35,647 bases of DNA, taken from NCBI RefSeq assembly GCF_004010195.1, contig NC_057720.1, positions 91,638,294 through 91,673,940 on the forward strand. Direction: 5' to 3'. The position numbers and the translations under genes are program-made. Under the pieces are notes generated by a model. It did no database searches. It saw nothing but the letters and a program-made list of their open reading frames with translations, and had not been told where the DNA came from. Of the stretch, positions 5,390-5,949 are shown one piece after another. The DNA is from Chiloscyllium plagiosum. Its lineage: Eukaryota. The stretch's first letter is position 1; every line of letters begins with the position of its first letter.

Positions 5390-5714
5390 TCAGTCTGAGC
5401 TTGCTTCCTTTACCGAACGTAATAGCTGCTACCCTGCTGACAGTAATAGTCAGCGACATCCTCATTCTGAACGTTGCTGATTGTCAGGGTGAAACTGGTC
5501 CCTGATCCACTGCCGGTGAATCGCTCGGAGACTCCTGTGAATCAAGTTGCTGCAGCATAGATCAGGAGAGAGGGTTTCTGACCTTCTCGCTGTTGGTTCC
5601 AAGCAAGGACATTGCTAACAGATTGACTGGCCGTACAGGTGAGTGTTGCGGTCTGGCCCAATCCCACTGACAGCACCGGGGGAGACTGGGTCATGGTGAT
5701 GTCCCCACTGATAC
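5390..5714 (-). pseudogene. IGKV: Pre-joined, out-of-frame V-J exon of an Ig kappa-type (NS4-like) light chain pseudogene
   Basis: Acceptor cctcag|[25 protein letters not shown]...[19 protein letters not shown] (TGA 5544-5542)...[13 protein letters not shown] runs directly into J (ACG TTC GGT AAA GGA AGC AAG CTC AGA CTG A|gtaatg = [10 protein letters not shown]) with no RSS; 22 nt between Cys and Phe codons, so frameshifted, with TAA at 5412-5410. Confidence 0.93.
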
Positions 5715-5900
5715 CTGAGGGGTCAGAGAGAAACACAGTGAAGTCAGAACTGTCACAGAAAGAGCCTGTCAAATGAGAGATTGTTGGAGATACTGAGCAT
5801 TCCTCTGGTTTCAGCATTTTCTCTTCAATCACAAGTCAGTGGAATTGGAGTGAAATGGAGAGCAGCTAAAGATTCAAGGTGGAAGGAGAGAGATTTGTAC

Positions 5901-5949
5901 CTGCGACACAGAATGCCAGGGGCCAGATCAGCTGGATGTGTGAAATCAT
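5901..5949 (-). pseudogene. IGKV: Ig kappa-type light chain leader exon of the pre-joined VJ gene (MISHIQLIWPLAFCVA-G)
   Basis: ATG at 5949-5947, 49-nt exon, donor GTACAA; encodes the same peptide as the leader at 29297-29345. Confidence 0.93.

Follow-up and report, generated by a model that had tools for sequence, protein, structure and literature searches.

A fused, out-of-frame kappa-type V-J gene in Chiloscyllium plagiosum and its likely origin by germ-line recombination

The window, i.e. the whole stretch of 35,647 nucleotides from Chiloscyllium plagiosum that was analysed (NC_057720.1, positions 91,638,294 to 91,673,940), carries at 5949-5390 on the reverse strand a broken light-chain gene of the kappa (NS4) type in which V and J are fused. 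A split paralog, here called paralog B, lies 23 kb away in inverted orientation and on a separate contig. The features of both genes are as follows, in coordinates of the window:

6056-6063, reverse strand: octamer-like promoter element ATTTACAT, a variant common to the family and not a lesion of the joined copy
6010-6017, reverse strand: TATA-like element
5901-5949, reverse strand: leader exon (MISHIQLIWPLAFCVA) with intact GT donor
5715-5900, reverse strand: leader intron of 186 bp, the length found in nurse shark NS4 (PMC2193156, accessible text)
5390-5714, reverse strand: fused V-J exon, a pseudogene
5596-5598, reverse strand: WY to WN substitution after the conserved Trp
5542-5544, reverse strand: in-frame TGA stop, CGA in the paralogs, a CpG change
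5418-5439, reverse strand: V-J joint of 22 nt, out of frame, V-templated to 5423 and J-templated from 5422, with no RSS remnant and no N base needed
5410-5412, reverse strand: TAA stop in the V frame, from the frameshifted joint
5384-5389, reverse strand: weakened J splice donor, GTAATG compared to GTAAGT in the family
1-5389, reverse strand: J-C intron, which extends beyond the window edge and over a gap to the C exon
29297-30324, forward strand: paralog B with leader (29297-29345), V (29532-29828) and J (30290-30324), likely non-functional and not the parent of the joined gene
29829-29856, forward strand: V-RSS of paralog B with 12-bp spacer (CACGGTG-12-ACAAAAACC)
30251-30289, forward strand: J-RSS of paralog B with 23-bp spacer and degenerate heptamer

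The initial annotation had described a fused VJ from which both recombination signal sequences (RSSs) and a spacer of about 460 bp have disappeared, and this description was borne out. No heptamer with one mismatch or fewer was found at 5300-5460 on either strand, the single nonamer look-alike (2 mismatches, at 5300) is distant from the joint, and 461 bp separate the V end from the J start in paralog B. Promoter, leader intron and J-C intron were all located, so that a processed pseudogene is ruled out, in agreement with the earlier statement that the gene is not a retrocopy. The C exon that belongs to the joined gene lies outside the window (G000:C11:91632767-91632442) and has an open frame; it is found on the same strand at 10.9 kb from J, with one assembly gap in between. 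Since leader-VJ, J-C intron, promoter and own C exon are all present, the joined gene represents a whole cluster, made up of a single V, a single J and a single C. Its V-J part sits on a contig of 6.1 kb with a gap on either side. In most copies of the family, the octamer of the promoter is ATTTACAT, compared to the textbook form ATTTGCAT. The joined gene encodes no antibody chain. Both the nonsense change from CGA to TGA (5544-5542) and the WY to WN change (5598-5596) reported initially could be located, and five substitutions, including one adjacent pair, fall within 30 bp around the J donor (5376-5404), whereas the background elsewhere consists of scattered single changes.

Several other elements were observed in the window. 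A third cluster is represented by a C exon with open frame (23130-23457, reverse strand), the 3' part of which recurs as a 247-bp tandem repeat (22830-23075); the J-C intron of this cluster enters a gap at 28512 and its V-J is absent from the window. At 11170-15140, a segment of about 2 kb is duplicated in tandem with 96-100% identity. At 19922-20920, short direct repeats are nested at spacings of 455, 231 and 135-143 bp and accompanied by polyadenylation-like signals, an arrangement resembling the terminus of a mobile element.

In kappa genes, a 12-bp RSS follows V and a 23-bp RSS precedes J. This arrangement was found in paralog B and in relatives, and the landmarks described for NS4 by Lee et al. 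(2000) are present as well: the leader intron measures 186 bp, the site of primer NSL is exact, that of JL5 has one mismatch, and the V-J spacers of 31 split copies range from 407 to 604 bp, compared to a landmark of about 500 bp. NS4 is equated with kappa in the accessible text of PMC5192425. By its intron length and primer sites, the gene would therefore match shark kappa / NS4 (type III). A protein search with the family C exon returned 4 matches, none of which supplied an isotype name, and no isotype is given in the entry of the best PDB match (7fjs_L, 'T6 light chain', E 1.9e-50). Two proteins labelled as originating from Aeromonas and Salmonella (P0001 and P0002) share 86% and 79% identity with the C exon of the shark and are likely fish sequence within bacterial records.

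The interval from the Cys to the Phe codon comprises 22 nt in the joined gene, compared to 29 nt for a blunt join of the ends of paralog B, which are the same counts as obtained initially. The 22-nt joint puts J out of frame and thereby creates the TAA at 5412-5410. The initial annotation had used paralog B as the unrearranged comparator, a role for which it proved poorly suited: its V side is only 94.0% identical to the joined gene, and it is itself damaged (J heptamer TTCTTTG, FGKG changed to FCKG, compensated frameshift in CDR2). This identity, two joint bases that stay unexplained when the ends of paralog B are used, and the position in the tree rule it out as parent. The split copy L026 is closer, and its ends template the joint completely if V lost 7 nt and J 2 nt. 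The claim that N addition is dispensable thus stands, whereas the estimate of about 7 trimmed nucleotides becomes 9 with the L026 ends. When the joint was compared with the pooled split ends (15 for V by 12 for J, a permissive fit), 0 N bases and 0 mismatches were likewise obtained. Because the 22-nt joint contains neither P bases nor microhomology, the action of RAG is deduced from the end positions and from the relatives of the gene. The joint ends lie 7 and 2 nt inside the signal borders, for which a rough uniform null gives a probability of about 3e-4. In the tree, the joined gene is placed with the split copy L026 and the joined copy L004 at weak support (84/88). The stretch 5346-5462, which spans the joint, is private to the joined gene. 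Its junction is unique among the fetched copies, but it equals the commonest joint of the family, with 25 nt, minus three C's, so that a later deletion of three bases is conceivable.

Searches of the shark's own genome and of the fetched stretches yielded 70 V entries, comprising 31 split and 29 joined copies, five with a V-RSS and with J outside the locus, three joined copies with deleted J core and two that were unclassifiable. The divergent L063 was left out of the 29, leaving 28 joints for analysis. A V-motif search, which favours neither state, gave a joined share of 42% (25/60; 63 matches, hand-matched, minus L063 and two unclassifiable), a value that would be inflated by any collapse of near-identical split clusters; on the chromosome-scale scaffold, half of the V genes found (4/8) are joined. 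In the 285 kb examined of G000:C11:91502000-91846700, 11 full C exons face 8 V genes, indicating that parts are missing; V-J parts were probably lost in gaps or collapsed. The clusters of this region alternate in orientation. The approximately 30 joined copies are 3-6% apart and mostly out of frame. With a rough classifier, lesions elsewhere in coding or splice sequence were detected in 16/22 out-of-frame, 0/3 in-frame and 13/28 split copies, a pattern that leans towards neutral decay (Fisher p 0.086 for out-of-frame compared to split copies). L058 is joined and in frame; part of its framework 3 is duplicated, and no stop was detected. L063 (G000:C25, near 53307947) is a divergent in-frame joined VJ with a 33-nt joint and a very long branch on another chromosome-scale scaffold, and is possibly an old joined gene or a member of another subfamily.

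The reading frame is kept in only 5 of the 28 joints (p 0.057 against an expectation of one third, the copies being non-independent), and 15/28 have the same length of 25 nt, for which the null share is 0.11; counted as about 4/14 lineages, the excess of this class has a p of 0.06. N bases were unneeded in all 28 joints (15 without mismatch, 13 with 1-2 substitutions) and microhomology of 2-3 nt was found in 18/28, compared to about 10% under random trimming; both counts come from generous fits, as the best parent was picked among many. Microhomology explains the shared joint length of 25 nt. All 28 joints end close to the RSS borders. L004 (G000:C11:91532119-91532549) has a 32-nt joint with 4-5 palindromic (P) bases that match the full-length J start of split L026, its sister in the tree (99/95), and these P bases are, as far as the sequences can tell, the clearest example among the joints of the trace expected from a hairpin. 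The sisters L040 and L042 (98/92) are 96.3% identical and have a common joint and J deletion, indicating that copying in the germ line took place after joining. L023, L040 and L042 lack the J core together with the splice donor, apparently through loss at the same short homology.

The tree comprised 48 rows of promoter, leader, intron and V with the junction excluded; L038, L024, L046, L023 and L064 (long or truncated), L063, L074, L039 and L045, and rows that were too short had been dropped. It needs 10 changes between the split and the joined state, at least 7 of which are forced by well-supported branches, and these indicate at least 7 putative separate joins in the family. A single origin was rejected for the joined copies as a whole (AU p 0.0005), as it was for those with the 25-nt joint (p about 1e-41). 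Trees of the upstream and downstream flanks disagree; conversion may therefore have transferred sequence from one cluster to another and blurred the number of joins.

We consider it very probable that the gene was joined by RAG in the germ line and that the 22-nt joint is preserved as originally made. Cleavage by RAG at the two recombination signals would have taken place in an ancestral germ cell or early embryo, in a parent cluster that may have resembled L026, and presumably passed through hairpins. The ends, trimmed by about 7 nt on the V and 2 nt on the J side, would then have been rejoined without TdT, and the joined gene would have been inherited and have acquired the stop and the weak donor by later decay. 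In the cluster family, microhomology would steer such TdT-free joints mostly out of frame. Germ-line action of RAG, as proposed initially, is thus the best reading and gains family-wide support, whereas the junction itself was unseen among the listed contigs of seven other runs, and contigs drop minor paths in families of this size.

It is unlikely that the gene was joined in the germ line but the joint was altered later, either by a small indel in a 25-nt or in-frame original or by gene conversion. The difference of three C's from the 25-nt type and the frequency of this type (more than half of the joints) speak for such a change, as do the small indels that are common among the pseudogenes of the family and the disagreement of the flank trees. 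However, the weakly supported group of the gene contains a split gene and a 32-nt joint but no 25-nt joint, its junction occurs in no other fetched copy, and trimming by 7 and 2 nt is accounted for by a single event. If the joint had been altered after all, it would no longer document cleanly how the ends were trimmed.

Germ-line origin of the joined gene appears likely, and we regard it as quite improbable that a non-productive rearrangement of a somatic B cell was captured in the assembly. Such a rearrangement should have a near-identical split parent, which was not found, although the assembly is gapped and the parent could be missing. Identity to the best other copies is 96-97%: over the first 431 bp of the J-C intron it reaches 96% (among the best 40 of 83 candidates), the best long match of this intron among the fetched loci is 95.9-96.9%, and for none of the 26 joined copies compared does a split copy exceed 97.3% on the V side. 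Capture would also require the same accident for about 30 joined copies. Private changes in the joined gene number 3 over 290 bases of V and 2 over 373 bases outside V, and the changes per kb in V and non-V sequence are 14.2/11.6 for joined and 11.0/8.1 for split copies, so that this comparison of private changes gave no excess in V as a sign of hypermutation. Hypermutation in sharks is focused on VJ and includes tandem changes. The substitution cluster at the J donor with its adjacent pair recalls this process and may be counted in favor of a somatic origin, together with the position of the gene on a short contig between gaps. The absence of N bases argues against it, since somatic NS4 joints have possible N-region stretches, and genomic blots of nurse shark, even of blood lymphocytes, showed no somatic joints (PMC2193156, accessible text).

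The read data can be read in either direction. Across 24 runs, less than half of the sampled words was shared in every case (best 0.49), and none of the runs listed as sharing them was recorded as RNA. Contigs of X7, X13, X12 and X14 were compared over 5330-5720 and those of X1, X5, X13 and X10 over 4100-6096. Among the matches listed, no contig of these seven runs bridged the 22-nt joint, and none from X7, X13, X12 and X14 carried the stop allele or the donor variants; in large families, contigs drop minor paths. X13 contigs do carry exact intron pieces of the joined cluster (4305-4387 and 4376-4464, depth about 10-12) that differ from all fetched paralogs, and the absence of the junction beside this part of the intron would also fit a somatic or private allele. 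The contigs of X1 omit the 186-bp leader intron (5711-5898), indicating that spliced transcripts of the family are present in this run, with nothing linking them to the joined copy. A pattern for re-inserted signal joints gave 4 matches at 2 mismatches, none with RSS nonamers, and no orphan J-RSS was detected, as 23/23 J-RSS matches lie at known J loci; there is thus no sign of germ-line RAG transposition.

Removal of the spacer by a RAG-independent deletion, or by conversion with a reverse-transcribed rearranged message, is highly improbable, because the lack of P bases in the 22-nt joint and the short-homology deletions that occur in the family (in the J core of L023, L040 and L042) are outweighed by the proximity of both ends, and of those of every other joint, to signal borders, by the retained introns and promoter, by the P bases of L004 and by the expectation that a somatic cDNA donor would be in frame and contain N bases.

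Recombination by RAG in the germ line thus being the preferred reading, we see an evenly balanced case for a wider proposal, according to which V(D)J recombination in germ cells acts frequently and repeatedly as a mutagen in this shark lineage. At least one third of the kappa clusters would have been fused in at least 7-10 events, and microhomology would steer most joints towards one out-of-frame product because germ cells lack TdT. RAG would thereby mainly kill clusters and drive their turnover, and the roughly 30 joints, which are little filtered by selection because they are mostly non-productive, would provide an unselected read-out of RAG end-joining in germ cells. For the copy in the window, the original suggestion that a non-productive joint was never selected and hence is a neutral record is plausible. 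The evidence for RAG action in vertebrate germ cells, as far as the NS4 light-chain type is concerned, previously rested on six nurse shark genes. With about 30 joints in one genome, the rate of joining, the absence of TdT, the bias towards microhomology and the hairpin step become measurable, and the joints can serve as junction-specific markers for inherited and for new joins in sperm DNA.

A precedent for joined NS4 genes had been invoked initially and is indeed found in nurse shark, where Lee et al. (2000) described six joined genes among about 50 (approximately 10%), originating from at least five events and including the out-of-frame pseudogene R19 (PMC2193156, accessible text, also for what follows on this species). 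R4, R7, R18 and RE18 are joined genes and R6 and R19 joined pseudogenes; R19 contains stop codons, and removal of one base from its CDR3 restores the frame. The nurse shark joints have trimmed ends, possible P bases and little trace of TdT. A joined out-of-frame kappa pseudogene as such has therefore been known since 2000, and the new part is the family-wide pattern. The accessible portions of PMC12227049 and PMC7677710 give no count of joined kappa genes, and no comparable census of germline-joined kappa joints was found in the literature searched, a scope to which subscription papers largely do not belong.

The joined gene in the window resembles nurse shark NS4 in its fused VJ, in the retained promoter, 186-bp leader intron and J-C flank, in the loss of the RSSs and in trimmed ends that bear little trace of TdT, and both families mix joined and split genes and have undergone several independent joins (PMC2193156, accessible text). 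Species and junction are different, and joined genes account for about 40% of the V genes found here, compared to about 10% in nurse shark. In-frame joints make up 5/28 with one dominant joint length in our set, in contrast to 4/6 in nurse shark. Germ-line origin was demonstrated there by erythrocyte blots and by PCR in seven sharks, whereas here it is deduced from the assembled sequence. The absence of N bases, the microhomology at coding ends and the limited length diversity are shared with V(D)J joints of TdT-negative lymphocytes, for which the bias towards microhomology is established (PMC13433984, accessible text). However, those joints are somatic, whereas the joints of the kappa family look inherited and favor an out-of-frame product; moreover, the joint in the window differs from those of TdT-negative lymphocytes in containing no microhomology. 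Pre-joined V(D)J has also been attributed to RAG in germ cells for the fully germline-joined lambda genes of sharks and for their joined sigma-2 / IgM1gj pair (PMC5192425, PMC4279169, accessible texts). These genes are described there as expressed, some of them early in life, whereas the copy in the window yields no chain.
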